Part shown: in pieces, positions 20,319 to 57,691 of the stretch | Layout of the letters: every line of letters begins with the position of its first letter | Position numbering within the stretch: the stretch's first letter is position 1 | Source: an uncultured Enterobacteriaceae bacterium | GTDB taxonomy: Bacteria > Pseudomonadota > Gammaproteobacteria > Eutrophobiales > Eutrophobiaceae | Reading direction: 5' to 3' | Length of the DNA stretch: 64,000 nucleotides | Assembly (NCBI GenBank): GCA_964523895.1 | Contig: CAZGBJ010000002.1 | Span: 86,898-150,897, forward strand | Notes under the pieces: model-generated | Database searches by the model: none | What the model was told of the DNA's origin: nothing | What the model saw: the letters and a program-made list of their open reading frames with translations, nothing else | Program-made: the position numbers and the translations under genes

Positions 20319-20384
20319 GGGACTGAATCCAGGGGGCAGGATTTAGGTACTGCTCTGTTTATACTCAATTCCCTAAAAACTATC

Positions 20385-21077: not shown

Positions 21078-21101
21078 AGCTAATTGCTATCCCCGTATTT
21101 C

Positions 21102-29153: not shown

Positions 29154-30521
29154 ATGAATCAGCAAACACACACATCATTTTTTTTACATTTAGCATTTTT
29201 GTTTGTGTGTTTACCAACAATAGTTAAAGCGAATGTAAATCAGGAAGAAATTGGCGAAGTTGTTTTTGCAAGAGGCGCAGTATCTGCTCAATCTCAAATT
29301 GGTGAAGTTCGTGTACTAGGAAAAGAAGCACCTATTTTTCAAGGTGATGTGATAACAACGGGACCAAAAAGTTTTAGTGTCATAAAAATGATGGATGATA
29401 GCCGAATATCAGTTAGACCCGACACGGTGTTTTCATTTGAAAATTATTCGATGAAAGAAAATGATGAAAGTGCAGTAATGCAATTATTCAAAGGTGGCTT
29501 AAGAGCAATCTCCGGGCTAATTAGTCAACGTAATCCAGAAGCCTTTAAATTGAATACCGCTGTAGCAACCATTGGCATACGCGGAACAGATTTCGATGCA
29601 AGACTATGTGAAATCGATTGTGCAATTGATGATAAAAAATATAAAAAGAAAGACGCGACTGTTGCAAAAGTCGTATTCCTAAGAGGCAATGTAAGTGCCG
29701 TCAATATAAACAATGAACAACGAGAGCTTGAATTAAATTCATCTGTTTATGAAGGCGAAACATTAATAACAGGTAAAAAATCTTATGCTGTCATCGCGTT
29801 TAACGATGAAAGTAAAATGACTTTAAAAGCGGAAACAGAATTAAAAATAGAAAGACACCGTTATATCTCGCCCGAATCGGATAAGAATGATGCCGTTTAT
29901 AAATTAATCAAAGGTGGTATGCGCGCCTTAACTGGTTTGATAGGTAAAAACAATAAAGAGGCCTATAAAGTTAAAACAGCAACAGCAACGATCGGTATTC
30001 GTGGAACTGGCTATGACTTGATCTGGTTAGGTGCATGTACCGGTGGCGCCAGCAGTTGTGGTCTAACGGGTTCAGTCTGGTTAGGAGCTATCTATGCAAA
30101 GAATGATGCTGGTGAATTCGAATTATTGGAAAATCAATCATTCATAATTCGATTAACTGATACACCCGCTACAATTATAAATACACCACCGGTGTTTGAT
30201 AGTCCGCGACCAGATAAAGTGGATGTTAACTTTGACGAACTGTTTGGAGACGAAGCCGAAGATGTTCCATCAGGATTGTACGCCAATACCCGTGAAGGCA
30301 TTGTTTATATGGAACGCGATGGCGAGATTATTGAGATGCGACCGGGCGAAGGCGGCTTTGTCTCAACTGATGGCAGTATCATTGTTAAATTGGAACGACC
30401 ACGAAACTTCCAAACGAATGATCCGTATTTACAAACGATCAATGAAGAGTTTGAAACGCTTTATGAGTTACTCGATGACAGTGTTATCGAACAAAATGAA
30501 TTTGAGTGCATTGTGCAATGA
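29154..30521 (+). CDS. Double FecR-domain protein, secreted
   Basis: Signal peptide plus two FecR-like domains (VVFARGAVSAQ…; VVFLRGNVSAV…). Confidence 0.7.
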   Translation: MNQQTHTSFFLHLAFLFVCLPTIVKANVNQEEIGEVVFARGAVSAQSQIGEVRVLGKEAPIFQGDVITTGPKSFSVIKMMDDSRISVRPDTVFSFENYSMKENDESAVMQLFKGGLRAISGLISQRNPEAFKLNTAVATIGIRGTDFDARLCEIDCAIDDKKYKKKDATVAKVVFLRGNVSAVNINNEQRELELNSSVYEGETLITGKKSYAVIAFNDESKMTLKAETELKIERHRYISPESDKNDAVYKLIKGGMRALTGLIGKNNKEAYKVKTATATIGIRGTGYDLIWLGACTGGASSCGLTGSVWLGAIYAKNDAGEFELLENQSFIIRLTDTPATIINTPPVFDSPRPDKVDVNFDELFGDEAEDVPSGLYANTREGIVYMERDGEIIEMRPGEGGFVSTDGSIIVKLERPRNFQTNDPYLQTINEEFETLYELLDDSVIEQNEFECIVQ

Positions 30522-37338: not shown

Positions 37339-38760
37339 TCAGGCTACTTTTTTTACGATATCCTTTTTTGTTAGAGTAGACTCTATCGCTGTCTTGAGTT
37401 CGGTGCAAACTAATTTAAATGATTGTAGTTCGCTAGTTGCTAATTTCTTGTTAGATTCTCCATGGTCGACGTAAAAACACCCGGTTACTCTATTGTTTAT
37501 GTAAAATGAATTTACAATGATAGTTGCTGATGATTTCATTGGTCGTAATGCACTGGGAAGCATTTCTATGAATTTATGCTGGTTTTTTGAATTAATACAG
37601 AGTGTTTGTTCTTTTTTTAATAATTGACGAAAAAGTTTATTTAATTCAATCGAGATCTTTAATTGTTTAAGATTTGGAAGATTATTATCCAGTGATTGAA
37701 ATTTTACATTCAGGCATTTTTCATTTGTATCAAACGACATAAAGAGTACACGCGAGAATCCTATACCTTCTTTCATGGCTTTTATCGAAATTTCTATAAG
37801 TTCGCGTGCTGATTTAGCTGGATTATTCGAACGGAGTAATTTCATGCAATCTGGAAAAATTGTATTTTCGGGCGCTTCAATTTCTTTCGGCTCCTTTTTA
37901 ATGGATGACGGATAGCTCATCATCATCAGTAATAGAGGTTGATAAGGCAGATACTGTTGACTATGTCGAATGGTATTAATAATAACCCGATTTATTTCTC
38001 CCGCTGTCTGGTTTGCCGGAATACGAATATATTCTGCGATACGGTCGATCAACTCTTCAGGGTAGTGAATTGATGAATGAGTAACTATTTGATGCATCAG
38101 TTCTGTTGTAAGTAGTATCCCGGTTATTTTGGGATTATGGTGTTTGCCGGAATAGCTTTCACAAATTAATTCAGGTAGTTTCCAGTTTTTAGCCAGGGAC
38201 TCTGATATTTCATCCAGACTGTTACCAAGCAATTCTTTTTCCTTACTTATATAATTTTCACTCTCTGAAAAATATAATTCTTCCACTTGTCTGGCCTTTT
38301 CAGAATCAACCAGATACAACATGAAGCTTAAAAAGCTATGATTTAAACCTGCGGTAAAGAGTTCATTGTTTTCAGATTCCTTTCTCAAAATAGACCACTG
38401 TTTCGCCATGCAGGCAATTTGATGTTGATAAGCATAGATGTGCAGTATTTTTGTTACGATTTTCTTATCCAGCACTTTTTCTAACTGTGGTAAGTCCGTC
38501 AGCATCTTAGTCACAATGGGTATACTTATGAGAGAGATCGCATGAGAGAGAGTGGTGATTTCTTTTTTACTGGCACGGCCGGCATGGCGTAATAGTGACA
38601 TCGAAAAACCCGGGTCTTGCATAGCAATATCAGTCAAGACATTAAACGTAATGTCTTGTTCGTTTTCTTGTAGTTCATAAAGTCTGTGTTTGCTCTGATA
38701 CAAAACAGGTATTTCGCAATCGCTGAAGGCTTTTATCCAATGTGACAATGTATTAGCCAT
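37339..38760 (-). CDS. HDOD-domain signalling protein
   Basis: 473 aa with an N-terminal HDOD-like region. No catalytic GGDEF, EAL or HD-GYP motifs were seen. Confidence 0.65.
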   Translation of the reverse strand: MANTLSHWIKAFSDCEIPVLYQSKHRLYELQENEQDITFNVLTDIAMQDPGFSMSLLRHAGRASKKEITTLSHAISLISIPIVTKMLTDLPQLEKVLDKKIVTKILHIYAYQHQIACMAKQWSILRKESENNELFTAGLNHSFLSFMLYLVDSEKARQVEELYFSESENYISKEKELLGNSLDEISESLAKNWKLPELICESYSGKHHNPKITGILLTTELMHQIVTHSSIHYPEELIDRIAEYIRIPANQTAGEINRVIINTIRHSQQYLPYQPLLLMMMSYPSSIKKEPKEIEAPENTIFPDCMKLLRSNNPAKSARELIEISIKAMKEGIGFSRVLFMSFDTNEKCLNVKFQSLDNNLPNLKQLKISIELNKLFRQLLKKEQTLCINSKNQHKFIEMLPSALRPMKSSATIIVNSFYINNRVTGCFYVDHGESNKKLATSELQSFKLVCTELKTAIESTLTKKDIVKKVA

Positions 38761-43813: not shown

Positions 43814-44743
43814 TCAACAGGACAGTGGATTAGCAGAGTCAAGCATTTTGCATTCGATAGCAGCTGACTGCATTCTCATTATTCCCTGAGCGTTGAGAAC
43901 GACACTGTATCGTTGATCACCATTAGGCTCAATATAATTTATACAGGTAGCAGCAAAGGTCCCTGCGGTCGGTGTACCAAAGTACGCTGAATTATTTGTT
44001 GTGTTTCCACCGGTTCGTTTTGATTCAATGTCAGCGCCACCACTCAATGCATGTAATGACCATATAATCCTATCAGCAAAAGGAACAATTAATTCAAAAC
44101 AGTAACCAACATGAACTTTCAGCAGGTTGGCATCTTGAAGTGATTGTGATGAGACTCCACCACCAACTAATCTTGCGTCCCGATACATTAAATTGTCATT
44201 AGGAATGGCTGTTTCAGTTGAGCCATCGACATCGATATCAACGCCAAAATCTGTAAAAGAACTTACACTTGGGTTAACCACGGTAATATTGACTAAACCA
44301 TTACTAATTTCATCTTGCACTTTACGTCTGGCACATATCACACTGTCTGAGTTGAAATTACCAATATTGGCATTGCGAACGTTTTGGGTATTAATATCAA
44401 CTATTTGAGTTGTACCTACTCTAGCTTGTCTGCCGGCATCAGTATTTAAAAAAGTACTAGAGCAATCATTGCTTGTATCTATACTGTAATAGCTGGTGGT
44501 GTAGAGCGGCGCCATATTACTGGCAAAAGCCATTTCCATGTCATCAAGAGAGGCATTGTTTATGCTACCCGTTCTAGCAGTTTGAAAGGCCGCATAGTTG
44601 AGCGTGATTTTAGCTTGGTAGATGAAAGCAAATTGTAATAAGCCCATTATCAGAAGTAACATCACCGGCAAGATAATAAGAAATTCGACCATTGCCTGTG
44701 CGTTAGAAAATTTGTTTAGCTTTTTTAAATAGATTTTACGCAT
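43814..44743 (-). CDS. TadE/TadG-like pseudopilin (Flp-type prepilin-like N-terminus)
   Basis: N-terminus …AQAMVEFLIILPVMLLLIMGL… followed by the TadE-like motif. Confidence 0.65.
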   Translation of the reverse strand: MRKIYLKKLNKFSNAQAMVEFLIILPVMLLLIMGLLQFAFIYQAKITLNYAAFQTARTGSINNASLDDMEMAFASNMAPLYTTSYYSIDTSNDCSSTFLNTDAGRQARVGTTQIVDINTQNVRNANIGNFNSDSVICARRKVQDEISNGLVNITVVNPSVSSFTDFGVDIDVDGSTETAIPNDNLMYRDARLVGGGVSSQSLQDANLLKVHVGYCFELIVPFADRIIWSLHALSGGADIESKRTGGNTTNNSAYFGTPTAGTFAATCINYIEPNGDQRYSVVLNAQGIMRMQSAAIECKMLDSANPLSC

Positions 44744-44778
44744 ACTTATCTAGAGAATATTTTCTCGAATTTGTTTAT

Positions 44779-45237
44779 TCATTTCTGTTCAATAATAGTT
44801 TTAATCCCTTCCAGCAAATCTTTCGCTTTGTCATACAAAGGGTCATCTATATCAGCATACTGTATCATTTCATTTAGACTGTAAGCCGTCTGCTTCAATT
44901 GGACAATGCTTAAGTTATACCAGGCCTTGGTATATTTTGGGTTACGAATTACAGCTTCACGGTATAGAGTAATCGCCGCCGAAGGACGATTAGTACGAAC
45001 AAATATATTAGCCAGTCTGAACCAATTTTGCGCAATTGCAGGTTTTTCTTTAACCAGAATTTGGTAACCTTTTTCGCTCTCTACCAGATCATCATTTAGA
45101 TATGCCGTGTCAGCTTGTTTTTGAATTTCAAAATAGTCGATATTGGCGCTATTGCTAGTTTCTATATTTTCTTCTTTTATGCTTGACGTATTGCAGGCTG
45201 CAAGATTAAACATCAAGATTATTGTTAGTATTCTCAT
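44779..45237 (-). CDS. TPR-repeat lipoprotein (TadD-like)
   Basis: Lipobox LAAC plus TPR repeats. Located within the tad operon. Confidence 0.6.
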   Translation of the reverse strand: MRILTIILMFNLAACNTSSIKEENIETSNSANIDYFEIQKQADTAYLNDDLVESEKGYQILVKEKPAIAQNWFRLANIFVRTNRPSAAITLYREAVIRNPKYTKAWYNLSIVQLKQTAYSLNEMIQYADIDDPLYDKAKDLLEGIKTIIEQK

Positions 45238-45243
45238 ATTAAA

Positions 45244-45597
45244 CTAGGCATTTTCATGCCATTCCAGTTGTTGTCCATTAGTTAATTGTAATCGCTCGAG
45301 GCTATCCGTTGCCAATTCTAATACCATACTTGCGGCACTTGAAGCCGCCATACGCCAGGGCTTTAGTGCCTTAACAGTTTTTATGATAGTCAATTGTTTA
45401 TCGAGAAATACCAGGTCAATGGCATAAGTCATGCCAAAGGTATGTACTGAAGAACAGGGCACGATCAATAAACCTTCGTTTTGTTTAAGCGGGGCTGAGC
45501 CTAAAAGGCCGCGCATTCTGTCAATGAAATTAGTAGTTTTTGAAACGTTCTGTATTACTCGATCATCATTAGCTCTGGTCAAGCAGCCATGGATCAT
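45244..45597 (-). CDS. DUF192-domain protein
   Basis: …GLLGSAPLKQNEGLLIVPCSSVHTFGMTYAIDLVFLD… matches the DUF192 pattern. It overlaps tadC by 4 nt. Confidence 0.7.
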   Translation of the reverse strand: MIHGCLTRANDDRVIQNVSKTTNFIDRMRGLLGSAPLKQNEGLLIVPCSSVHTFGMTYAIDLVFLDKQLTIIKTVKALKPWRMAASSAASMVLELATDSLERLQLTNGQQLEWHENA

Positions 45598-46475
45598 AAC
45601 ATTCCTTCACCCATAAACTTCATGACGATAGGGAAACCAAGAACGATAAATGTAACCGGGAAGATAAACATGATTAATGGACCTACCAGTTTAATTGGTG
45701 CTTCCATTGCCAGCTTTTCTGCACGTTGGAAACGTTCATCGCGGCGTTGTTCGGATTGAACCCTTAAAACAGTTGCAAGCGAAGCCCCCATTTTTTCTGC
45801 CTGAATAATGGAGCTAACAAAGCTGGTGATTTCAGGGATATCAAGTCGTTCTGCCATACGTCTTAAAGCATCTGCACGTGACAGTCCTGAACGTAGATCG
45901 CGAAGTACAATTGCAAATTCATTACGCAATGGCCCAGGAGGTGCTTTTTCCATTGCTTGACCTAATGCACCTTGTAAGTTCAGGCCGCCTTCCACACACA
46001 TAGTAATAAAATCGAGATAGACTGGTAGGCTGCGAATGACAGCAGTATTGCGTTTCTTTCGGGTGTCAGATAACCATATCAACGGCAACATAAAACCAAC
46101 TATTGGCATAAAGATAAACCAGATAGGTTGAAAATTATTGAGGCAGATCATAATAAACAGTGCCATACCAGGTGCGATTATGGCTGAGATGATACGTAGG
46201 GCTATAAATTGTTCTGCATTGAGAAGATATCCTACACCAGAATTAGTAATTTTTGTTTCCGTGCTTTCAAGTATCTCGTAGGGTAAATAGACACAGAAAA
46301 AATTAGCGATGATTTGGATAAAGGGCCAGATTAATTTTAATTTCCAGGATAAAGGATCCATAAATGCCCTGTCATCCTGATTGACCATGGCATAGAGAGT
46401 GCCAATCAGTAATGTAAACAGAATAGTAGCAAGAGCATAAGAGATGATGCTACCTTGAAAATAAATGCTATCCAT
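45594..46475 (-). CDS. tadC: Tad pilus inner-membrane platform protein TadC (T2SS-F fold)
   Basis: T2SS-F domain. The start is set at the internal ATG at 46475 to avoid a 100-nt overlap with tadB. Confidence 0.8.
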   Translation of the reverse strand: MDSIYFQGSIISYALATILFTLLIGTLYAMVNQDDRAFMDPLSWKLKLIWPFIQIIANFFCVYLPYEILESTETKITNSGVGYLLNAEQFIALRIISAIIAPGMALFIMICLNNFQPIWFIFMPIVGFMLPLIWLSDTRKKRNTAVIRSLPVYLDFITMCVEGGLNLQGALGQAMEKAPPGPLRNEFAIVLRDLRSGLSRADALRRMAERLDIPEITSFVSSIIQAEKMGASLATVLRVQSEQRRDERFQRAEKLAMEAPIKLVGPLIMFIFPVTFIVLGFPIVMKFMGEGML

Positions 46476-46489
46476 TATTTCGTATCCTA

Positions 46490-47371
46490 TTAAACATCGA
46501 TACTTGTTATTTTGGTAATCATAAAATAGCCAAGTATCTCCATCATGATGATAATGGACAGAACGATATAACCGATGGTGGTTGTCCATAGCTTACTCAT
46601 GGCTTCTGGTTCCATGAAATTAAGTAATACGCCAAGCAAGACAGGTAGCCCAGTCATCACAATACCTTGAAGTTTACCTTGAGCAGTTAGACTCTGGATT
46701 TTACCTTCCATCATGCCTTTTCGACGTAGGGTTTCTCCCAGCGTTTCCATAGTTTCTGCAAGGTTGCCACCGACTTCACGGTTAATCAGAAGGGCAGTGA
46801 CGAGCATGCCAAAGTCCTGAATAGGAATGCGTTCTTCCATTTTTTTTAATGAATCTTCAAACTCTACCCCGAGCCGTTGTTCTTTGAGGAATAATTCAAA
46901 TTCTTGTGAAAGCGGCGCAGGTTGTTCTTTGACCAAACTTTCAAGAGCAATCGTCAGACTAGCACCGGCACGCATTGCACCAGAAATCATAACCAGGCCA
47001 TCCGGTAATTGCTGTTCAAAGCGTTTCAGGCGTTTATTGCGCATAGAACGATAAAAGAGAGAAGGTAACAAAATAATAACGACCAACATGCCTAAGGTTG
47101 CAGGTAGGTCTTCTGTTATAAACCAGGTCAGGATGGGCAAAACGATAATTGCAACAATATTGATCATAAACATCTGATTGGCATCAATAGATAAAAACAT
47201 ATCAGACATATTACTACTGGCCGTCTGAGTGAAATTCTCTTTGTAATTATCCATAAATGTTTGCGCTTTCCTTAAAAACGCAAACCACAGACAGGCCATC
47301 GTAATAAAAACGGCAGCCAGCGTTAGATAATAACTGGTACCGGCGGTGAAATTGATTATGGCATCAAACAT
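46490..47371 (-). CDS. tadB: Tad pilus inner-membrane platform protein TadB (T2SS-F fold)
   Basis: 293 aa with the T2SS-F domain and characteristic TM topology. Confidence 0.8.
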   Translation of the reverse strand: MFDAIINFTAGTSYYLTLAAVFITMACLWFAFLRKAQTFMDNYKENFTQTASSNMSDMFLSIDANQMFMINIVAIIVLPILTWFITEDLPATLGMLVVIILLPSLFYRSMRNKRLKRFEQQLPDGLVMISGAMRAGASLTIALESLVKEQPAPLSQEFELFLKEQRLGVEFEDSLKKMEERIPIQDFGMLVTALLINREVGGNLAETMETLGETLRRKGMMEGKIQSLTAQGKLQGIVMTGLPVLLGVLLNFMEPEAMSKLWTTTIGYIVLSIIIMMEILGYFMITKITSIDV

Positions 47372-47375
47372 TTTC

Positions 47376-49064
47376 TTAAGAAAATATTGACATATCTACG
47401 GGTAAACCACGTTGACGCATTTCTTCATAAAAGTGGGGTATTGCGCCTGTTGCTTCGAAATGCCCTTTTACTTTACCATTTTCATCAAATCCCTCTTGTT
47501 GATAACGAAAGATGTCTTGCATTGATACGATGCCAGATTCAACGCCTGTTATCTCAGTGATATTGGTAAGGCGACGACTACCGTCGGAGTAGCGAGATAT
47601 TTGAACGATCATGTGAATAGCAGAAGCGACCATTTCCCGAATAGCTGATACAGGTAAATCCAGGCCTGACATCATTACCATGACTTCTAAGCGGGCGATC
47701 ATATCCCGGGGTGTATTCGCATGAGCCGTTGTTAAGGAACCGTCATGGCCGGTATTCATAGCTTGTAACATATCCAGTGTTTCACCACCACGACACTCAC
47801 CAACAACGATTCTATCAGGTCGCATACGTAAACAGTTTTTCACCAAGTCACGAATAGGAATGGCGCCTTTGCCTTCCAGGTTTGCCGGCCGTGCTTCAAG
47901 GCTGACCAGGTGGGGTTGTGTTAATTTTAGTTCTGCAGCATCTTCGACGGTAATGATACGTTCGCCAGGGGGAATAAAATTAGACAAAACATTCAATAAG
48001 GTTGTTTTACCACTGCCAGTACCGCCAGAAATAAGAATGTTCATATGGTTATTAACAGCGGTTTCCAGAAACTGTACCATCCCGTCATTTAATGCGCCAA
48101 AGTTAACCAAATCGGAAGCCTGTAACTTTTGTTTGGCAAATTTTCGAATCGTCAGACAAGGGCCACGTAATGCCAGTGGGGGAATGATGGCGTTAACACG
48201 TGAGCCATCTTTTAATCGGGCATCAACCAGGGGTGAGCTTTCGTCGATGCGCCTTCCCAAAGGGGAAACGATACGCTCGATGGACGTCATGACAGCATCA
48301 TCACTTGAAAATGTGATATCAGATAAGGTGAGCTTGCCAGATTGCTCAATAAAAATTTCATCAAATTTATTGACCATGATTTCTGTGACAGTATCATCAG
48401 CAAGCAATTGTTCTAGCGGTCCTAATCCAACCGCCTCATTCAATACATCCTCTAAAAGTTTTTGCTTATCTACATCAGCGGGTAATTTGGAACCCATCTC
48501 ATCGATGATTTCTTTAACCATACCCTCTACGTGTTTACGTAAACCGTCCTCATCCATACTGCTGATATCAGTGCGACGTAAATCCATTGCCGCGAGTAAT
48601 TCTTCGTGTACTCGGTTACGCCATTTGAATTTTTCGTTGTGCTGCAGGTTGACTATTGTTTTACTGAGTTCTTCTGATTCATCCAGGACTTCATGTTGCT
48701 GAACACCGATGACGGTCTTCATGTCTTCAAAGGCATCGTCATCGTCATCATCGATTTCCTCTGCCGAATCAGCGCTGATACCCGCCTGTATATGGTAACC
48801 CGCAATAATGATTTTATCCGCGGAGCGGATTGGACCATGATGATCAACATCTTCATCATTAACTTCGATGCGACTTTGACCGGTTTTATCTTCTATAAAA
48901 AGGCCTTCAGATGTACGGCTGATGACAGCATGATAGGGAGCTACTTTCCAGCCACGTAATTGTATGAAGTTATCGCGTGCCTTGCCGATAGTGCATTCAG
49001 CAACCGGGCAACTAAAGTTCTTAATTCGTTCGCCTTTACTGTTATTAACTAAAACATCAAACAT
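47376..49064 (-). CDS. tadA: Tad/Flp pilus ATPase TadA/CpaF with N-terminal FHA domain
   Basis: N-terminal FHA (…CTIGKARDNFIQLRGWKVAPYHAVISR…SRIEVND…) and a C-terminal CpaF ATPase (ISGGTGSGKTTLLN; VGECRGGE; HDGSLTTAHAN). Confidence 0.85.
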   Translation of the reverse strand: MFDVLVNNSKGERIKNFSCPVAECTIGKARDNFIQLRGWKVAPYHAVISRTSEGLFIEDKTGQSRIEVNDEDVDHHGPIRSADKIIIAGYHIQAGISADSAEEIDDDDDDAFEDMKTVIGVQQHEVLDESEELSKTIVNLQHNEKFKWRNRVHEELLAAMDLRRTDISSMDEDGLRKHVEGMVKEIIDEMGSKLPADVDKQKLLEDVLNEAVGLGPLEQLLADDTVTEIMVNKFDEIFIEQSGKLTLSDITFSSDDAVMTSIERIVSPLGRRIDESSPLVDARLKDGSRVNAIIPPLALRGPCLTIRKFAKQKLQASDLVNFGALNDGMVQFLETAVNNHMNILISGGTGSGKTTLLNVLSNFIPPGERIITVEDAAELKLTQPHLVSLEARPANLEGKGAIPIRDLVKNCLRMRPDRIVVGECRGGETLDMLQAMNTGHDGSLTTAHANTPRDMIARLEVMVMMSGLDLPVSAIREMVASAIHMIVQISRYSDGSRRLTNITEITGVESGIVSMQDIFRYQQEGFDENGKVKGHFEATGAIPHFYEEMRQRGLPVDMSIFS

Positions 49065-49082
49065 AAGTGTTCCTTGGAAATT

Positions 49083-50567
49083 TTAATAAACGATATCAAG
49101 AGATTTTTCATCAATTACGTTGATGATTTTTTCAATATGATTATTGGTATTTTGAATGTCTCTCTGATTAAGTTCAGACTGTGCATCAAATACGGTAGGT
49201 GTAACAAATATAACCAATTCACTCTTTTTATCTCGGAAGCTTTTGGATTGAAATAGTTGTCCGAGTATGGGTATATCCATAAGGAATTTAAGTCCACTGA
49301 TATCTTTGGATGCCTCCTGATTGAGCAAACCTGACATGACTAACGTTTCACCTGATCTGAGAATAACATCAGCATCAGACGTTCTTGTAAGTAGCCCCGG
49401 AATACCATTAATAGCAACGGAATTATCAATTGAACTAAGTTCGGTCGAGACTTTTGCTCGAACATTGTTATTAATATCTACGACAGGTTGTACAGAAAGT
49501 TTTATACCAAACTGTTTAAACGTCACTGTCGTGCCATTGGTGTTCGATGTTTCTATAGGGAACTCACCACCCGCATGAAAGTTTGCTTCACCACCGCTAC
49601 GAGCTGACAAGCGAGGTTCAGCTAGAATCAATGCATTACCTGAACTAACTGCAAAGTTAATTCGAGATGTGATTTCCGAGACTATACCAAAGTATCCGAG
49701 TGCACTGCGTCCTATCTCAGGCGCCAAACCAGCAAAGGATGTATTTGGCAATTCTGAAGCTGCAAATGTTGCATTACTTACGGCGCTAGAAGCTACCGCA
49801 GCTGCAGGACCAGCAACAGATGAATCCCACTCAACACCCAAAGATTCAAGGTAGTTTTTATTAAAATCAGTGATCTTGGTTTGAACGATCACCATTTTAT
49901 TATCTGGACTTTCCATATTGATACTGTCACCGCTGCGAGTCAGATCCATGACTTCTGCAAATACGCTTTTCACGGTGTCAATTGAGTCTTTATATCCTTC
50001 ATCAATGTTTCCAGTCAGGACAATATGTTCACCGACCAAGCGTACATTTAATCCATCAACATCAGAAAGCATGTCTTCGATTTCCAGTTTCTTTCTGACT
50101 AGAGTATTTACGGCAAAATTGATATTAATGACGACTTCTTCATAGGTTTCTTTGATGCTGTTGATTGAATCTTCATGTCCAAAGGCAACCAGTCCTGACA
50201 GTACAATTCGATCACCAACAATATCTATTGCAAGTCCATCTATATCAGAGAAGATCCCTTCTAATTCAGCTTTTCTTTTAATGAGATTGCCAGATTGTTC
50301 AATGACATGAACGGTGTAATCATCTTCATTGCCGTTATTAAACCAGATATGTAAATTACTGGTGCCAGCGGACTCTGCGATAAGTAGTAATTGGCCATTA
50401 TTGAGCAATGAGTTACTGGCGACTTCAGGATCACCCATTGCGATACGTTCGATATCTCCGAGCCGGAGGATCTTTATCTCACCAACGTAAAGTTCTATTT
50501 GTTCTCCCGCTATACAAATACTTGTTGTAAATAGCAAAAGACTAGCCACGAATATATTTTTAATCAT
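49083..50567 (-). CDS. rcpA: Tad secretin RcpA/CpaC
   Basis: Signal peptide, two BON-like N-terminal repeats and a C-terminal secretin domain (…LVMSGLLNQEASKDISGLKFLMDIPILGQLF…VIFVTP). Confidence 0.85.
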   Translation of the reverse strand: MIKNIFVASLLLFTTSICIAGEQIELYVGEIKILRLGDIERIAMGDPEVASNSLLNNGQLLLIAESAGTSNLHIWFNNGNEDDYTVHVIEQSGNLIKRKAELEGIFSDIDGLAIDIVGDRIVLSGLVAFGHEDSINSIKETYEEVVININFAVNTLVRKKLEIEDMLSDVDGLNVRLVGEHIVLTGNIDEGYKDSIDTVKSVFAEVMDLTRSGDSINMESPDNKMVIVQTKITDFNKNYLESLGVEWDSSVAGPAAAVASSAVSNATFAASELPNTSFAGLAPEIGRSALGYFGIVSEITSRINFAVSSGNALILAEPRLSARSGGEANFHAGGEFPIETSNTNGTTVTFKQFGIKLSVQPVVDINNNVRAKVSTELSSIDNSVAINGIPGLLTRTSDADVILRSGETLVMSGLLNQEASKDISGLKFLMDIPILGQLFQSKSFRDKKSELVIFVTPTVFDAQSELNQRDIQNTNNHIEKIINVIDEKSLDIVY

Positions 50568-50710
50568 GATGTATATTTCCTGATTCCCTTAAACAATATA
50601 TTTTAATTTTTATAAACAGTCGTATTAACTATGACTGATATTTTTTCTAATTTTAGAAACTGATTTATGAGCTAAATACAGCTATGAGTTAGCTCTCTTT
50701 CTGTTTCAAA

Positions 50711-50992
50711 CTAATCCTCGACGGGTAAGTTGACTTGTTTCGCCAACCCATCCTCCGACTGTCCACCTACTATCATTTTTATAGAACGTCCTTTTTGTTT
50801 TTTTATAACCCTGGTACTGATAATTCCTTCAGGCAATTTTTTTGACATAGTGTCTGTATTAATTGTCTGTTTATCATCAGAGCTCATATCCTCCACTAAT
50901 GATTCTTTATAACTGTCTTCTTCTGCTGCAAGTGTAAGATAACTCCATCCCATCATAATAATGATGGGATAGAGCAATGGTCTAATGCGCAT
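50711..50992 (-). CDS. Small secreted protein sharing a C-terminal motif with the CpaB-like protein
   Basis: Signal peptide. Its C-terminus IVGGQSEDGLAKQVNLPVED parallels the CpaB-like C-terminus IIGGASEDGVAKSTTVSVP. Confidence 0.4.
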   Translation of the reverse strand: MRIRPLLYPIIIMMGWSYLTLAAEEDSYKESLVEDMSSDDKQTINTDTMSKKLPEGIISTRVIKKQKGRSIKMIVGGQSEDGLAKQVNLPVED

Positions 50993-51004
50993 AAGCCTTA
51001 ACAG

Positions 51005-53116
51005 TTATTTTTTCTCTCCACTTTCTTTATCTTTTGGTACAGATACGGTTGTTGATTTAGCAACGCCATCTTCACTCGCACCACCGATGATAAGGTCGTA
51101 GTTCTCAGGCGTTTTTAACTCACCTGTAATCGACTGATTTTCGGCAATCAATGCAATCTCATCTGAACTTAGAATCTTGCCATTAGCGCCAATCATGATA
51201 TTGCTTGGGTCGACAATATTGCCATCCTTATCAACAATATCTCCATTCTCATTAATGGTGTAACCAGCTGCTTCTAATTGTGCGCGACTGGCGAGTGTCT
51301 TACCGCTCGCGTCAACCAGGTTGCCATTTTCATCGACACCCGATGCGACCTTAATACCAGACGCTTCGAGTTGTTTCTTACTGAGAATCTCGCCGTTAGC
51401 AGAAGTGATCAAATCATCTTTATCAATGACATTGCCATTCGCATCAACAATCTCACCGTTCTCGTTAATGCTGAGACCGGCTGCTGCGAGTTGCTCTTTG
51501 GTCATGATGCTGCCGTCGGCTGCAACGACCAGGTTATTCGGATCAACGATGTTTCCATCCTTATCCACGATTTGTCCATGCTCATTGACCGTCAGTCCGG
51601 CTGCGGCTAATTGTTCTTTACTTAAGACAGAGCCATCAGCGGCGATATTTAGATCTTCAGGATTAATGACGTTGCCATCTTTATCAACAATCTCGCCATT
51701 CTCATTGACACTGTAGCCTGCGGCTGCCAATTGCTCCTTCGTTAATACGGTGCCATCTGCATTTACGATGATATCTTTGGTTGAAATAACCTTGCCATTG
51801 GCATCGACGATTTCACCATTTTCATTGACGCTGAGTCCGGCTGCTGCCAATTGCTCTTTGGTCATGACACTACCATCAGCGGCAATAACAACATCATTTG
51901 CATTAACGACATTACCGTCTTTATCAACCAGTTGTCCGTTTTCATTGACAGTGAGTCCGGCGGCGGCGAGTTGTTGTTTGTTCAACACAGTACCATCTGC
52001 GGAAACACAAAGGTCAGTTACATTAACGGCATTGCCATCTTTGTCTACGACTTGTTTATTGTCATTGATATTATAACCAGCAGCAGTCAGTTGCTTGCGA
52101 TTGATGAGTTTGTTTTTATCTGCATCGATTAGATTACCATTTATGTCGATGTCTACAGCACAAGCGGCGCGAGAAGCGCGATCTTTCTCTGCTGCAGCCA
52201 TACGCGAGGCATTGCCAAATAGATCAGTAGGGGCAACAGAAGTAAAAGAAGAAGCACTTTGATCATCCCGATTACGTAATAATGCCAACATGTCACCTTT
52301 GTCTTCAGCCAAGGTAATCAGAGCCGCCTGGTCTGGCGTTACTTCAATAGTGATATGAGAAAAATGGGTTTCAGTACGGCGTTGTGGTTGTCGTAATGCA
52401 TCCAGCGTTTCTTGGTAGGGGTCTCGACCGGTAGCTAATACAGTGATATTTTGCAGTACAGGTATAATAACGTCAGTAGGTGAAATACCGGCTAATAGTG
52501 CTTCAGGTTCTTCTAAGGTATCCGTAGCTGCCAAAAGTTCAGCCGGGATCATATCTTGCGCTTCTTGTGGTAGTAGTTCTAACAGACCGGCTTCTTTTGC
52601 AGCGATGATCATTGCGGGATTAATACCCGATGTTGCAAATGGAATATTGACAAAAACATCGATGCGATTACCCGGACGTAGAAAGCCGCCAATAGAGTTT
52701 ACATCATCAACAGTAATAGTAATGGCGCGTTTACCTGGAGGTATGATGTCAGAGAAGTCACGAGGAAAATCTTCATCCACAAAGCTTCTTAATAGGGGTT
52801 TCCCTCTACCTAGGTTGGTGGTCAGCGAGCGTCCCAAATAACGGTCAAATTCACTTGGGTAAATAGCATCTTCATGTACATAATTGGTAGGGACAGGACG
52901 CTGACTAAAAAGGTTTTGTGTTATCTCTTGTCCTTTGCGTAAATCGCCAGTTGCCACAACGACCATGATTTGCCTGGCCTTGTCTTGTTCGTATTTTGCT
53001 TTTAACTGCGCTTCACGTGTATTTAGATAAAACATTGCTAGCAAAGCGGCGATAATACCGAACCCGATTGCACCTGCCAGTAAAGGCATAGAATTTTTTT
53101 CTTGTTTTTTAGCCAT
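51005..53116 (-). CDS. cpaB: CpaB/RcpC-family Flp pilus assembly protein with a long C-terminal tandem-repeat extension
   Basis: N-terminal TM helix and SAF/CpaB domain (…QIMVVVATGDLRKGQEI…), followed by 8 tandem 40-aa repeats of KEQLAAAGLxVNENGxIVDKDGNVVxxxDLxIAADGSVxT. At 703 aa it is far longer than the usual 250-300 aa. Confidence 0.8.
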   Translation of the reverse strand: MAKKQEKNSMPLLAGAIGFGIIAALLAMFYLNTREAQLKAKYEQDKARQIMVVVATGDLRKGQEITQNLFSQRPVPTNYVHEDAIYPSEFDRYLGRSLTTNLGRGKPLLRSFVDEDFPRDFSDIIPPGKRAITITVDDVNSIGGFLRPGNRIDVFVNIPFATSGINPAMIIAAKEAGLLELLPQEAQDMIPAELLAATDTLEEPEALLAGISPTDVIIPVLQNITVLATGRDPYQETLDALRQPQRRTETHFSHITIEVTPDQAALITLAEDKGDMLALLRNRDDQSASSFTSVAPTDLFGNASRMAAAEKDRASRAACAVDIDINGNLIDADKNKLINRKQLTAAGYNINDNKQVVDKDGNAVNVTDLCVSADGTVLNKQQLAAAGLTVNENGQLVDKDGNVVNANDVVIAADGSVMTKEQLAAAGLSVNENGEIVDANGKVISTKDIIVNADGTVLTKEQLAAAGYSVNENGEIVDKDGNVINPEDLNIAADGSVLSKEQLAAAGLTVNEHGQIVDKDGNIVDPNNLVVAADGSIMTKEQLAAAGLSINENGEIVDANGNVIDKDDLITSANGEILSKKQLEASGIKVASGVDENGNLVDASGKTLASRAQLEAAGYTINENGDIVDKDGNIVDPSNIMIGANGKILSSDEIALIAENQSITGELKTPENYDLIIGGASEDGVAKSTTVSVPKDKESGEKK
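51190..52150. repeat. Tandem 120-nt coding repeats (about 8 copies) inside the cpaB-like gene
   Basis: Periodic DNA/protein repeat. It also generates spurious antisense ORFs (51278-52132 +). Confidence 0.75.
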
Positions 53117-53154
53117 AATCCGTTTTACTTTTTAAGTTGGTATTTGTTTGATGT

Positions 53155-53520
53155 TTAAAAAAAACTGGTTGCCTCTTCAGTTATCTGATCGACTAGATAA
53201 TCTTTGCCCATGTCTAAATCAGGTACTTCCAAGTCAGGAAAACTGGTGTATTCCTCTAATGCTGTAACTAGAGCTGACGGGTCAATTGGATTGATGACAT
53301 CTGCATCAATTAAGTAATCTGCCAGATTGTCATGATCGGGTAGGGTAGATAAGGAACTGGCGTACGAATAACCTTGATACTTATCATTCATGACCCCGAG
53401 TAGATCCAGTAATACATCTCCGCCAGGGCCGACAGTCATTACCATGACACCAAACACCAGAACGACAACATATTCGACCATACCCTGGCCTCGCTGCTTT
53501 ATGTGCTGTTTCGTTTTCAT
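53155..53520 (-). CDS. Flp-like prepilin/pseudopilin with an acidic C-terminal tail
   Basis: N-terminus …QRGQGMVEYVVVLVFGVMVM… carries the Flp-type G/xxxxEY prepilin motif and hydrophobic helix. Confidence 0.5.
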   Translation of the reverse strand: MKTKQHIKQRGQGMVEYVVVLVFGVMVMTVGPGGDVLLDLLGVMNDKYQGYSYASSLSTLPDHDNLADYLIDADVINPIDPSALVTALEEYTSFPDLEVPDLDMGKDYLVDQITEEATSFF

Positions 53521-53536
53521 GTCAATCCCAATTATC

Positions 53537-54292
53537 TTAAAAAATAGAGTTAGTTACAGAATTGATGACGATCCGAGTGTCATTATTATCTTTTATGAAT
53601 ATCATAGTAATTCTATTTCGTTTACTTTTAAAGACTAAACTGTGCATTTTGCCTACGCCGCCAAGATCCGTATCTGTTTCGTTAGTCCAGCCCAAGCCCT
53701 CATAGTGGCTGCGGTAGAAAGCAATATTATTTTCTATCGTATGGTTATTGGAAATAAGTAACGTTTTTGCCTTTTTCCCGGGATCTTTACTGGTTGATTC
53801 ATTGAGTACTTGGCTGTCCCTCATTTTGGGTATGCCTTTACCCCGTTCAAAATCAAAATCGTCCATATCGGGTAGACGACCCAGAGATAAATAGCCCCAG
53901 GATCCTTTACCAGTACGCTCATTGACTTGAACCTGCACCGTAAGCAGATAACCTTTTTCAGCGCGGCTGATAATATACCAGGGAGCCGCTGCAATATTTT
54001 CCAAATAGCCAGGCATATCTTTGCCAACCGGATTTCGCCATTCCTTACGATAAAATTCCACGACGTCTTCTATCGACTTATTACTATGAAATGCGCGTAC
54101 AGCTGATGGAATGCCATTAATTTCCATATTTTGTCCGACCCATTCGACGCTTGCTTGCGGCGGCGGTGGAAAATCAGGCGCGGCGCTGAGTATGGTTGGA
54201 TTCAAACATATAACGATCAGAGCAAACGTTAGCCATGGAGATTGGTTCATAAGTCTATATGTTCGATTAGTCAACATCATGGTGCCAAGCAC
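53537..54292 (-). CDS. Hypothetical secreted protein in the tad operon
   Basis: Signal peptide and no known domain. It overlaps the upstream gene by 16 nt. Confidence 0.45.
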   Translation of the reverse strand: MLGTMMLTNRTYRLMNQSPWLTFALIVICLNPTILSAAPDFPPPPQASVEWVGQNMEINGIPSAVRAFHSNKSIEDVVEFYRKEWRNPVGKDMPGYLENIAAAPWYIISRAEKGYLLTVQVQVNERTGKGSWGYLSLGRLPDMDDFDFERGKGIPKMRDSQVLNESTSKDPGKKAKTLLISNNHTIENNIAFYRSHYEGLGWTNETDTDLGGVGKMHSLVFKSKRNRITMIFIKDNNDTRIVINSVTNSIF

Positions 54293-55368
54293 TCTCGTTC
54301 AGCAAGTGTGCGAATCACATCAAAATCACACATACCGGCATCATTACATGAATGAGCGCCAATGGTGTCTCCTGTATTCGGGTCAATCAGTCGATCGGGG
54401 TGTGTGGCGTCAATATCAATATGTCCGAGCCACAAACTGCCTTTGTCATCTGCTGGATATATACCTCCTGGATTACACAGGCGTAGTTCAGGCGCAAAGA
54501 TGGTTACGGCATTCCAAATATCTGTCATGCCTGGAATTAGAGTAAACAAAGAAGCTAACATCGTGATCGGTGCCGTACCTCCCACTTGATTATAGGTATG
54601 AACTTTACCGCCTGCATTCCAGGCATTTGATAGCACTGCGGCGCTACTATTAAAATCCAGTGTGCCGCCAGTTAGTTCATTGGATGTACCGGCTACCCCA
54701 TTCATATTGTTGTAATTTGTCACGAAAGTGGGATTCACAGCCACCTGCATTGAGATGGTTGACTCAGCATAAGCATCATTATTGATTGCATCAAACCCGA
54801 CATTGGAGCCCACAAGCCCCATTAGATCACCGAAAATCTCGAAGATGAAACCAATACCATCACTGATGACTTGAACGATGTCGCCGAGTACGGGTACGGT
54901 CGGTGTGTCTTCTGAGCTTCGCAAACTCGCAGTTGCTCCATCAACACCGGAGTATAAAATATTGCCTGCATGATCGGTCCAGAGTGGGTTTCTACTTGCA
55001 GTGGTCCAGTCAGTGACTGAATCTGTACTGGTAATCGGCAAGGTCGTTGTTTCATTACCGGGATTGGTAAAAAAACGTTGCCGCGCCTCTTGTTGAGTCT
55101 CTACTGTAGACTTGAATGGTTGAGTAACAATAGCAGTACCACTGTCATCTTCGAAGCCCGACATGATTTCTGAATTACTGTCATACCAGACAGTGTACTC
55201 CCATGCTTGATAACGTGAGGCCTGAATAGCTGAATGTTTAATATCGATATATTTTGCCAATAGTGAGACACCAAGAAAGAGGGGTACAAGAGCGAATGAG
55301 GCACAAACCAAAAATTCAGTCATAGCTTGACCGCGTTCACTTTTGAATATTCTGTTAATCAGTATCAT
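54277..55368 (-). CDS. TadE-like pseudopilin
   Basis: N-terminus …ERGQAMTEFLVCASFALVPLFLG… shows the TadE-like motif. Confidence 0.7.
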   Translation of the reverse strand: MILINRIFKSERGQAMTEFLVCASFALVPLFLGVSLLAKYIDIKHSAIQASRYQAWEYTVWYDSNSEIMSGFEDDSGTAIVTQPFKSTVETQQEARQRFFTNPGNETTTLPITSTDSVTDWTTASRNPLWTDHAGNILYSGVDGATASLRSSEDTPTVPVLGDIVQVISDGIGFIFEIFGDLMGLVGSNVGFDAINNDAYAESTISMQVAVNPTFVTNYNNMNGVAGTSNELTGGTLDFNSSAAVLSNAWNAGGKVHTYNQVGGTAPITMLASLFTLIPGMTDIWNAVTIFAPELRLCNPGGIYPADDKGSLWLGHIDIDATHPDRLIDPNTGDTIGAHSCNDAGMCDFDVIRTLAERECLAP

Positions 55369-55369
55369 T

Positions 55370-57307
55370 TTAAAATGGTAAATAACTCAATAGATCGCCA
55401 AAAATAGTATTAAATGAGCCTGTGAGGTTGATAAAATTTTCTTTTTGTTGAATGAGTAAAGCAAGTATACGGTCAGCATAACTCGTCTCGATTAATCGCG
55501 CTTGCCAGTAGGGGTTGAAGGCATTTCCTGTCTCTGTATAACCATCCCCACGATGAAAATGGGAGGCCAGATTATCGGTAGGTCTGGCAAAGTAAAGTTC
55601 TGATTTTGATAAGACAGCCAACTCATCATCAGCGAGATCCTCGGTAAGGGAGAAGCGACCCGTGGGTTCGCTGTTAGCAGGAGTGGTGCTATCAAAATCG
55701 GGTTCGTCTTGCACCAATCCAATAATAACATTCGGCGCTCCGACTCCCATGAAGGACTCATGTCCCGAATTTGAATCAACATAATAGGGCAGGCCTTTAT
55801 AACTTTTGTTGACTCGGTTACCGACAGTTGTTTGCAGTGGTTCAAATGAAGATGGATGGATACCATAAGGCCCTGTTCCTGGTACCGTTACGTACCAGGC
55901 CGCCAGATTATTAGCGGCTTCTCCATATTGATCATTTTCGACAGGACCCGGGTTCGTCATATGCCCAGAATTCAAGTTATTGTCTGTTTTACCGACCTCT
56001 GCAAATCCGGCAGCAAAAGGGACACCGGTGGGGACTGGAATAGAGGGAATGATAGGTATATCAATGCCCCAAAAACTCACAGTCAGACTGAGCGAAGAAT
56101 CACCGAAGTCTAGTTCTCCACCTACGTCGAGTAGATCTTCACATGCTCCAAGTATGCAACCCTCAACCCAAAGTCGAAATCGCAAATAAATATCAAGAAA
56201 TAGACCGGTTGTATCGGCGGCGGACCAGTTAACGTTTCCGGCACTGACATTACCAGACGTGGGTAAGACAAAACGCATTTCAGTGCCACCTCTGCGTTCC
56301 AAAGATATATCAAGGTAAAACTCAAATTCAAAACCGGCCTCAATACAGCCGACGGCACAAGGACCGTAGGGGCCAAACGTTTCACTTTCATCGATATCTA
56401 TGGGAGGAAACGCTTTCAGTTCCCAACCTGGACGCCCATCTGCTAACTCTTGAGTAGTGCAGAACAAGCAGAAGGGATCCTGACCGCGGTACATACTGAA
56501 GGGATCACGGGAATCTCTAATCAGGGCTTGCAGGCGGGCATAACCATAGCCACCATCATAATCTCCATTTGCGTCTTCAGTGCTACCATAATCAGCGACG
56601 TCGACCGTTGTTGCGCCATAACCAGGGATGCCTCCAGCACTATATACCGTTGTAAATTGGTCGCCGGGTAGGCTGGGGTGTAGACCTAAAGTGGCAATAT
56701 GTGCAATAAGTGAAATAATACCGAAATCAGAGAGTTTGGCACCGGGCGGACCATTTTGTGTGATCGTGTCATCCAGTACACCAATAGAAGAAATAATACT
56801 GACGATATGCAATATGGTTGAGGCAAAACCGTAAATTTGATTAATGATGTGTAGTGCAGATGTGATCCCATTGGCTAGGGTCTTCATTGCCGTAATTGCT
56901 ACTCCCCCACCTGCTTTCCAGACGCTAGTAATTGCTGAAACGATGGGGGTTGAAGTCCCTAAAGTGATTGGTGAGAACAGTAGTTTGTCGTAAAGATCGA
57001 GATATTGGGCAAATGAATTGAAATGGTATGCCCAGGATGCCAAGCCAACGCTTTGGCCGATGGCGACTTCATTAGCGACGATGCCCCGATTGATATAAGC
57101 GGTGAAATTCATGTCTCGCGCTTCTACCGTAGACATACTATAGGCAGCGGCATCTGCAGCATTTTGCAACTGCATTTTGTTACTGGTGAGTTTCCCCATC
57201 TTGAACAGGGTGAGGGCGGAGACGACCAAGATTGCCATAAACAGCATCACCATCACCGCAGCCTGACCGCGTTGTGAAGAATGACTTATGGACTTATATC
57301 CTGACAA
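55370..57307 (-). CDS. TadG-like pilus assembly protein
   Basis: N-terminus …QRGQAAVMVMLFMAILVVSAL…NAADAAAY… matches the Tad-like PF13400-type N-terminus. 645 aa. Confidence 0.7.
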   Translation of the reverse strand: MSGYKSISHSSQRGQAAVMVMLFMAILVVSALTLFKMGKLTSNKMQLQNAADAAAYSMSTVEARDMNFTAYINRGIVANEVAIGQSVGLASWAYHFNSFAQYLDLYDKLLFSPITLGTSTPIVSAITSVWKAGGGVAITAMKTLANGITSALHIINQIYGFASTILHIVSIISSIGVLDDTITQNGPPGAKLSDFGIISLIAHIATLGLHPSLPGDQFTTVYSAGGIPGYGATTVDVADYGSTEDANGDYDGGYGYARLQALIRDSRDPFSMYRGQDPFCLFCTTQELADGRPGWELKAFPPIDIDESETFGPYGPCAVGCIEAGFEFEFYLDISLERRGGTEMRFVLPTSGNVSAGNVNWSAADTTGLFLDIYLRFRLWVEGCILGACEDLLDVGGELDFGDSSLSLTVSFWGIDIPIIPSIPVPTGVPFAAGFAEVGKTDNNLNSGHMTNPGPVENDQYGEAANNLAAWYVTVPGTGPYGIHPSSFEPLQTTVGNRVNKSYKGLPYYVDSNSGHESFMGVGAPNVIIGLVQDEPDFDSTTPANSEPTGRFSLTEDLADDELAVLSKSELYFARPTDNLASHFHRGDGYTETGNAFNPYWQARLIETSYADRILALLIQQKENFINLTGSFNTIFGDLLSYLPF

Positions 57308-57392
57308 TGTTAACTCCGTTAAATTGCCAGAATTATCTGAGAATGGGCTTTATTCTTTAATATTGCTGGCTTTTATTATTCTTATAGACGGT

Positions 57393-57420
57393 GCTTCTGC
57401 CAGCCTAAGGCTGGCAGAAG
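57393..57420 (-). promoter_or_regulatory. Perfect 12-bp stem-loop immediately downstream of flp (possible attenuator or mRNA stabiliser)
   Basis: cttctgccagcc / ggctggcagaag with a 3-nt loop. No canonical U-tract follows. Confidence 0.35.
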
Positions 57421-57448
57421 ATGTCATTCATACTTTAATTAAGGCTAA

Positions 57449-57691
57449 TTATTGTACAGTGTCACTGTCTACGTAGGTTGCCATACCTCTTTGGGTCTCT
57501 GCAGCACCACCCTCAGTATAAGTATCTGCAGTTGCAGTGCCACCGGATAGCTCTGCCGTCATGTTACCCATTTGGTCGGTAATGGTGTCGCCAAAGACAC
57601 TATAGATACCGATTGCTGCAATAGCGATTAGCGCAACGATGATGATGTATTCTGTCATGCCTTGACCTAACTGTTTCATAAAACGTTTCAT
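57449..57691 (-). CDS. flp: Flp-family major pilin
   Basis: MKRFMKQLGQGMTEYIIIVALIAIAAIGIY: Flp prepilin motif (G/xxxxEY) and hydrophobic helix. 80 aa. It is the first gene of the tad operon. Confidence 0.8.
   Translation of the reverse strand: MKRFMKQLGQGMTEYIIIVALIAIAAIGIYSVFGDTITDQMGNMTAELSGGTATADTYTEGGAAETQRGMATYVDSDTVQ

Follow-up and report, generated by a model that had tools for sequence, protein, structure and literature searches.

The window analysed here (the whole 64-kb stretch of DNA, 64,000 nucleotides of contig CAZGBJ010000002.1) encodes on its minus strand, at 47376-49064, a TadA protein which is predicted to drive, as motor ATPase, the pilus machine of a complete Tad/Flp locus in an uncultured marine gammaproteobacterium. 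This protein carries an N-terminal FHA domain. Judged from its residues the domain has lost the canonical phospho-threonine pocket, and at the Tad loci sampled no two of FHA fusion, TadZ fusion and separate tadZ gene occur together. The interpretation we favour, at a probability of roughly 0.55, is that the tethered FHA domain is a phospho-independent docking module which replaces TadZ, and that a Ser/Thr kinase cassette found elsewhere in the window serves a neighbouring CHASE2 cyclase. The six FHA domains tethered to a TadA hexamer would act as a protein-binding module that docks the motor, or positions it, at either the TadB/TadC platform or some cellular landmark, the job otherwise done by TadZ, and the kinase cassette would not serve the Tad motor. 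An earlier interpretation of the same DNA, made from the letters alone (the sequence-only reading), had proposed a threonine-phosphorylation checkpoint on pilus assembly. The FHA-fused architecture itself has been published, as the 'class III' CpaF and as KilF of Myxococcus, and the window gene is a further case.

The motor gene and its parts are as follows.

47376-49064, minus strand: FHA-fused Tad motor ATPase, class III CpaF/TadA, 562 aa (Pfam FHA and T2SSE, CpaF 9e24 match, ortholog clusters).
48780-49064, minus strand: N-terminal FHA domain, residues 1-95, non-canonical, with G27-K28, A42, H45 and S64 and an invariant W39 (hhalign, HMMER alignment to the EmbR FHA, conservation in the clade).
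48645-48779, minus strand: acidic, weakly conserved linker, residues 96-140, with MKTVIG at 115-120 (mean pairwise identity, clade alignment).

The open reading frame (ORF) thus reads as FHA, acidic linker and CpaF-TadA ATPase, and the fusion announced by the sequence-only reading was confirmed: Pfam places FHA (PF00498) at residues 24-86 with 28.3 bits against a cut-off of 20.7, and T2SSE (PF00437) at residues 211-491 with 215.6 bits. All ATPase motifs are intact, with Walker A GGTGSGKTT at 347-355, the Walker B region RIVVGECRG at 418-426 and the His box HDGS at 440-443, and the nearest solved structure is Caulobacter CpaF 9e24 (E 4e-124). The T2SSE score, the motifs and the 9e24 match together identify a PilT/VirB11-type ATPase core, and the N-terminal FHA domain, recovered by both Pfam and hhalign, is a feature of class III CpaF. 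The architecture is conserved: FHA and T2SSE occur together throughout more than 120 clusters of orthologs, 76-94% identical, in marine gammaproteobacterial metagenome-assembled genomes (MAGs). Among the 150 best TadA representatives after clustering at 50%, 42 have an N-terminal FHA domain at E < 1e-3.

Conservation is uneven along the protein. Mean pairwise identity among 18 orthologs is 87% in the ATPase, 76% in the FHA domain and 55% in the linker. The one fixed element of the otherwise variable linker is MKTVIG (window 48705-48722), which directly follows the acidic run and is invariant within the clade but is not kept in FHA-TadAs outside it. An AlphaFold2 model of full TadA, built with 18 close orthologs, has low pLDDT (the per-residue confidence score) over 98-142 and helices at 130-211; its mean pLDDT of 50 makes it a low-confidence model overall, from which only the secondary-structure pattern was used and neither a fold search nor pocket geometry.

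In FHA domains an Arg and a Ser touch the phosphate, and mutation of either one kills binding. The TadA FHA domain aligned with canonical FHA domains without gaps (hhalign, 99.6% probability, E 1e-24) and was also alignable to the EmbR FHA by HMMER; its top match in the PDB was the KIF13B FHA. By the EmbR and hhalign alignments, three of the four pocket columns are substituted. The Gly-Arg of the β3-β4 loop is G27-K28 in TadA, with the Lys invariant in the 18 orthologs. The Ser-x-x-His of the β4-β5 loop is A42-P-Y-H45, in which the His is kept and Ala is found in 16 orthologs and Ser in 2. The Asn of the β6-β7 loop is S64, and since this column holds S, T, G, D, E or N among the 18 orthologs the position appears unconstrained. 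Because both phosphate-contacting residues are replaced, canonical phospho-threonine reading by the TadA FHA domain is unlikely.

Comparison of FHA-TadAs revealed two types. In the canonical type R/S/H/N are invariant, as at the Myxococcota and 'delta'-type loci L008 and L017 and in part at L018 (loci of the survey are given by L numbers). The degenerate type conserves a GW[RK]-[VI]-[AG] motif and is without the Ser and the Asn; its members are the window, L001, L002, L004-L006, L024 and L040, which include Chromatiales, Oleiphilus, Acidithiobacillus, Quisquiliibacterium and Alcaligenaceae. The Ser and Asn are gone throughout the beta/gamma-proteobacterial FHA-TadA lineage. With Lys28, Ala42 and Ser64 in place of the triad, the proposal that this FHA domain reads phospho-threonine made by the CHASE2 kinase finds no support in the sequence; a checkpoint acting through the TadA FHA is not backed by the pocket residues, and the genomic context, described below, favours it only weakly.

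The second line of evidence is the absence of TadZ, which the sequence-only reading had also remarked. A six-frame scan with hidden Markov models (HMMs) found no ParA/MinD-like TadZ in the 64-kb window. At the place where tadZ usually sits, the stop codon of the secretin gene is separated from the tadA start by 18 nt. The sole match to the TadZ model in the window is the receiver domain of a LuxR-type regulator. This match and the corresponding one at L003 were rejected; since the similarity is confined to the receiver-like N-terminal stretch of the model, they denote response regulators rather than TadZ.

The pattern was then examined across 73 Tad loci, taken from the matches listed in a genome-contig search and each having at least 1.5 kb upstream of tadA; tadZ was scored as present when a ParA-like gene lay within 2.6 kb upstream of tadA. 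Among these listed matches an upstream ParA-like tadZ was seen at 46 of 52 loci whose TadA has no N-terminal module, at none of 11 loci with an FHA-fused TadA, and at none of 10 loci with a TadZ-fused TadA (Bdellovibrionota, Oligoflexia, Omnitrophota, Elusimicrobiales, WOR-3). The link between FHA fusion and missing TadZ, which had been put forward only as a possible explanation, is thus supported. The Fisher test for FHA-fused against plain motors gives 2e-8, a value that overstates the evidence because the exclusivity rests on few evolutionary events within one clade. That clade unites motors fused to FHA with motors fused to TadZ in a rough neighbour-joining tree built on the ATPase domains, and the most fitting account of the pattern is that one N-terminal module was swapped for another.

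TadZ-TadA fusions are found beyond Bdellovibrio, also in MAGs labelled Oligoflexia, Omnitrophota, Elusimicrobiales and WOR-3; the loci bearing them are L007, L009, L010, L012, L013, L015, L022, L029, L033, L046 and L054. At L013, L015 and L033 a separate small receiver-domain ORF lies downstream of the fused gene.

What is reported of TadZ proteins agrees with the idea that the tethered FHA domain docks or positions the motor. CpaE is ParA/MinD-like and in Caulobacter positions the machine; six dimers of it encircle CpaF in situ as a ring, and it has been called ubiquitous in Tad systems (PMC13170226). In the TadZA fusion of Bdellovibrio, the TadZ part with its linker binds the polar hub RomR (preprint 10.64898/2026.07.08.737194). 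No paper tying FHA fusion to the absence of TadZ was found in a literature search on TadZ/CpaE and FHA.

Two explanations that keep the FHA domain within the motor can be weighed at this point. The domain could be a decaying relic of an ancestral phospho-regulated motor, now without function, and the tree is consistent with such a history, the canonical-FHA members being basal and the degenerate beta/gamma group nested, with the pocket residues gone. Purifying selection on the domain is nevertheless clear from its identity among orthologs and its many invariant residues, including W39, and it is retained in all the ortholog clusters and in several orders; we consider loss of function very improbable. 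The domain could otherwise be a cis-acting regulator of the motor, affecting hexamer assembly, ATPase activity or the bias between extension and retraction through TadA's own acidic linker or N-terminal domain (NTD), without any replacement of TadZ. Conservation of both the FHA domain and its tether agrees with this, as does the report that Caulobacter CpaF with a truncated intrinsically disordered region (IDR) at the N-terminus tended towards higher ATPase activity in vitro while its pilus activity in vivo went down (PMC12019362). Cis regulation is doubtful all the same, as it leaves unexplained both the missing tadZ at every FHA-TadA locus and the sister grouping of FHA-fused and TadZ-fused motors.

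The other half of this interpretation concerns the kinase operon, whose presence about 23 kb from the motor gene had been described correctly (47376 minus 24439, or 22.9 kb). Its genes and the adjacent cyclase gene are the following.

20385-24439, minus strand: operon of a CHASE2-Ser/Thr kinase, a PP2C phosphatase and a stand-alone canonical FHA protein whose FHA domain keeps GR, S, H and N (Pfam, NCBIfam).
20385-21077, minus strand: stand-alone FHA protein (FHA, 74.6 bits).
21102-21929, minus strand: PP2C phosphatase (NCBIfam Stp1, 248.8 bits against a cut-off of 230).
21929-24439, minus strand: CHASE2 and Pkinase domains, a Hanks kinase (168 and 191.7 bits).
18057-20318, plus strand: CHASE2-adenylate/guanylate cyclase (Pfam CHASE2 184.9 bits, Guanylate_cyc 78.9 bits).

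FHA domains were found by the six-frame scan in two ORFs of the window only, TadA and 20385-21077. The stand-alone protein had been called a double-FHA protein; one FHA domain passes the threshold, and a second in its C-terminal half was rejected as sub-threshold (FHA HMM E 0.018; Yop-YscD_cpl E 0.022).

The kinase, phosphatase and FHA genes have a single constant neighbour, the CHASE2 cyclase gene, which adjoins them in L083, L085, L087, L093 and L094 as in the window (18057-24439). The operon is most likely a separate signalling cassette, in which the partners of the kinase would be the canonical FHA protein encoded with it and the cyclase next door. The constancy of the four-gene cassette suggests a coupling of Thr phosphorylation to cyclic-nucleotide signalling, and a search of the literature for a CHASE2-kinase/FHA/cyclase cassette returned nothing specific. 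At L094 the cassette is followed by a gene resembling class II cyclic-nucleotide phosphodiesterases. A partner-switching module (GAF-SpoIIE phosphatase, RsbW-like kinase and STAS protein; window 15899-17964) lies beside the cyclase gene, and the same arrangement is kept in L083, L085, L087 and L093.

In relatives the Tad locus and the kinase operon lie closer together than in the window. The genome-contig search gave no relative above 60% identity among the matches listed, and close relatives were found through contigs encoding orthologs. These share a block in the order htpG, Tad locus, mutS, (ABC transporter), ferredoxin, (HDOD), DUF4124, CHASE2-kinase, PP2C, FHA, CHASE2-cyclase and STAS / RsbW / RsbU, seen in L081-L083, L087, L088, L089 and Methylohalomonas lacus L085, and within it only about 9 kb separate tadA from the kinase gene. 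Two arrangements in related contigs show that the parts come apart. L093 keeps the full kinase block, with htpG 53 bp from mutS and no Tad locus. At L090, whose TadA is 77% identical to that of the window, the Tad locus is flanked by ligA and by a GGDEF / nadB / rpoE region and is free of kinase genes within 10 kb. In a third, unrelated context (L094), the kinase-PP2C-FHA-cyclase genes are followed by phosphodiesterase, TPR, FecR and GAF-T2SSE ATPase genes, again with no Tad locus. A kinase is likewise missing from the neighbourhood of seven of the eight degenerate-type Tad loci.

The co-occurrence of FHA-TadA with the kinase/PP2C/FHA operon, offered as a check on the checkpoint proposal, gave a mixed picture: the two loci are conserved neighbours within the clade, but L093 and L094 have the kinase without Tad and L090 has Tad without a nearby kinase. 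The within-clade co-occurrence is moreover confounded by vertical inheritance around the mutS-fdxA anchor. At least 10 relatives have TadA and the kinase together on one contig, a finding set aside because it reflects shared synteny and not independent co-occurrence.

These arrangements bear on the possibility that the CHASE2 kinase and PP2C set the phospho-threonine state of a Tad component which the TadA FHA reads, gating pilus assembly in the manner of PpkA/PppA/Fha1. The conserved, co-directional order from htpG through Tad, mutS, fdx and DUF4124 to the kinase operon speaks for it, together with the enrichment of kinases beside FHA-TadA loci given below and the presence of kinases and further FHA proteins at the canonical loci L008, L017 and L018. 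These observations have to be set against a pocket reading K28, A42 and S64 with position 64 free to vary, the housekeeping genes (mutS, ABC transporter, ferredoxin) between the two loci, the kinase blocks without a Tad locus, and the Tad loci without a nearby kinase, which besides L090 are L002-L006, L024 and L040. The kinase operon also encodes a canonical FHA protein of its own. Direct gating of this kind is unlikely.

An indirect form of phospho-control would have the kinase mark TadA, for example at Thr117 of MKTVIG, or a platform protein, with the stand-alone FHA (20385-21077) as reader and the TadA FHA as scaffold only. The invariance of MKTVIG in a variable linker, the apparently phospho-threonine-competent FHA protein encoded alongside the kinase, and the conserved vicinity of the two loci in the clade are in its favour. 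The KTV of this motif is, however, kept in L090/P0119, where no kinase is nearby; the Gly at +3 of Thr117 is off the usual pT+3 preferences of FHA domains; and it is the CHASE2 cyclase that constantly accompanies the kinase trio. Such control is highly unlikely. Quite as improbable is a combined scheme in which a phospho-blind FHA has been exchanged for the TadZ ring and yet a checkpoint resembling that of type VI secretion (T6SS) persists, split over the two loci, with the CHASE2 kinase and PP2C setting the state of Thr117 or of a platform protein and the stand-alone FHA reading it.

Several observations weigh against a phospho-independent FHA that replaces TadZ and stands apart from the kinase. 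The few evolutionary events behind the exclusivity of FHA and TadZ have been mentioned. The scan covered 64 kb, and tadZ could lie elsewhere in the genome. Lys28, together with the near-invariant neighbour Arg30, might still touch a phosphate. The Tad locus and the kinase operon remain conserved neighbours in the clade of the window, as far as Methylohalomonas lacus. Finally, among the matches listed, a Ser/Thr kinase lies within 10 kb at 4 of the 12 loci with an FHA-TadA but at only 1 of the 68 other loci (Fisher p 0.0014); three of these four have a canonical or near-canonical FHA and one, L001, has a degenerate FHA like that of the window. A historical or residual link of FHA-TadA to Thr phosphorylation is plausible for this reason. 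The kinase and the LuxR regulator of L001 were considered as orthologs of those in the window and rejected, with 38% (kinase domain) and 24% identity.

The complete Tad/Flp locus occupies 43814-57691 on the minus strand. Besides the motor it encodes the expected partners (TadB/TadC, RcpA secretin, CpaB/RcpC, Flp and TadE/G-type pseudopilins), the Flp call being below the Pfam cut-off.

57449-57691, minus strand: candidate Flp pilin, 80 aa, with the visible motif GQG/MTEYIIIVALIAI (Pfam Flp_Fap E 2.8e-4, 21 bits, below the 32.2 cut-off).
55370-57307, minus strand: TadG-like protein (Pfam Tad, 31.8 bits).
53155-55368, minus strand: three conserved ORFs, two with pseudopilin-like N-termini (RGQGMVEY, RGQAMTEF) and one secreted (no Pfam match; syntenic in L081-L090).
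51005-53116, minus strand: CpaB/RcpC with a long C-terminal array of ~30-aa repeats (NCBIfam pilus_cpaB 139 bits; Pfam RcpC, SAF and DUF3659, the last in 5 stretches).
50711-50992, minus strand: small secreted protein, 93 aa (signal-like N-terminus; counterparts of 86-93 aa in L081 and L088; no Pfam match).
49083-50567, minus strand: RcpA/CpaC secretin, immediately upstream of tadA in the usual place of tadZ (Pfam Secretin 131 bits and T2SS-T3SS_pil_N).
46490-47371, minus strand: TadB-like platform protein (Pfam T2SSF 57 bits; syntenic in L001, L003, L005 and L081-L090).
45594-46589, minus strand: TadC-like platform protein (Pfam T2SSF 72 bits; 293-295 aa in relatives).
45244-45597, minus strand: DUF192 protein, conserved in this locus type (Pfam DUF192 60 bits; in L001, L002, L003, L005, L006, L024 and L040).
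44779-45237, minus strand: TPR protein in a TadD-like position (Pfam TPR_16 and related repeats; syntenic in relatives).
43814-44743, minus strand: TadE-like pseudopilin (Pfam TadE 47 bits).

The true start of TadC is probably farther downstream, as the listed ORF overlaps tadB by 100 nt. No prepilin-peptidase (TadV/CpaA) family was found in Pfam scans of the larger ORFs of the window, and processing of the Flp candidate must thus rest on a gene elsewhere. The C-terminal repeats of CpaB/RcpC (LTKEQLAAAG..NENGEIVDKDGNV) match DUF3659, and the protein varies in length from 578 to 980 aa across relatives. The 93-aa ORF ends in IVGGQSEDGLAKQVNLPV, closely like the C-terminal end of CpaB, IIGGASEDGVAKSTTVSVP; a C-terminal motif thus appears common to the two.

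As a whole the Tad locus acts as a ~14 kb cassette between htpG and mutS, as seen on comparing 43814-57691 of the window with L093 1520-6101. Between DUF4124 and the kinase the window is ~12 kb longer than L083 and L087 (24536-36866). The additional DNA holds a histidine kinase, a LuxR-type regulator, a ShlB/TpsB-type outer-membrane transporter, a FecR protein, a BrnA antitoxin and a 1930-aa ORF without a Pfam match; GC content is raised, at 0.44-0.46, over 32-36 kb of the window. An HDOD gene is present at 37339-38760, as one is in L089. FecR-domain proteins lie beside CHASE2 sensor genes in two unrelated contexts, window 29154-30521 and L094 18673-21336, and in the window a ShlB/POTRA transporter is adjacent as well; the FecR / CHASE2 (/ ShlB) grouping may be a multi-component envelope sensor. 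Downstream of its kinase-PP2C-FHA-cyclase cassette, L094, from a distant relative, encodes at 21341-22556 a T2SSE ATPase of 788 aa with a fused GAF domain.

The FHA domain of class III motors has so far been assumed to read phospho-threonine, and no functional study of any class III CpaF was found in the literature searched. Experiments would be redirected by two findings: beta/gamma-proteobacterial members appear without the phospho-binding residues, and FHA fusion, TadZ fusion and a separate tadZ exclude one another. Taken together they yield a testable hypothesis on the way in which Tad machines that lack TadZ have their motor docked or positioned. In the present window the link from kinase to pilus is weak, and the kinase cassette more probably belongs with the CHASE2 cyclase.

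Compared with known systems, the kinase operon shares with PpkA/PppA/Fha1 of type VI secretion the encoding together of a Hanks kinase, a PP2C phosphatase and an FHA protein. The T6SS cassette, however, lies inside the cluster of its machine and has a phospho-threonine-competent FHA, whereas the cassette of the window is 22.9 kb from the Tad motor, occurs without the machine in relatives, and faces a machine FHA that is predicted to be without the pocket. Phospho-independent binding has precedents in the KIF13B FHA and in the FHA-like domains of YscD/PrgH from type III secretion (T3SS). The KIF13B FHA, the best PDB sequence match of the TadA domain, has in that alignment a Ser at the Arg position and a Leu at the Ser position; TadA also gives a sub-threshold Pfam match to Yop-YscD_cpl, the cytoplasmic domain of YscD/PrgH, and has no close homology to either.

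Class III CpaF has been described as FHA-IDR-3HB-NTD-CAD, for example in Achromobacter xylosoxidans E3HIW0 (Yen et al., Nat Commun 2025, PMC12019362). The window's motor appears to share this domain order, reading as FHA, an acidic and probably disordered linker, a putative helical bundle, an NTD and the ATPase, and by their FHA domains the Alcaligenaceae loci L024 and L040 belong with it to the degenerate type. The FHA is described there generically as phospho-threonine binding, whereas in the motor analysed here the pocket residues are missing and TadZ is absent from the locus. It also differs from the Achromobacter example in being gammaproteobacterial and in having the Arg additionally replaced by Lys.

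KilF, of the Tad-like Kil killing apparatus of Myxococcus xanthus, is an FHA-fused ATPase for which T6SS-like threonine signalling was suggested earlier (Seef et al., eLife 2021, PMC8460266). Both it and the window protein are Tad-type hexameric ATPases with an N-terminal FHA, and CpaE/TadZ goes unmentioned in that paper. At L008, a locus of the Myxococcota type, the FHA is canonical (GR/S/H/N) and further FHA proteins and a kinase are encoded nearby; the FHA of the window's TadA is degenerate, and its Tad locus has neither FHA genes beyond the motor nor kinase genes of its own.

The TadZA protein of Bdellovibrio bacteriovorus resembles the motor of the window in having an N-terminal module on a flexible linker and no separate upstream tadZ, and on the ATPase tree the two belong to sister clades. 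The difference lies in the module, which is a ParA/MinD-like TadZ domain in Bdellovibrio and an FHA domain here.

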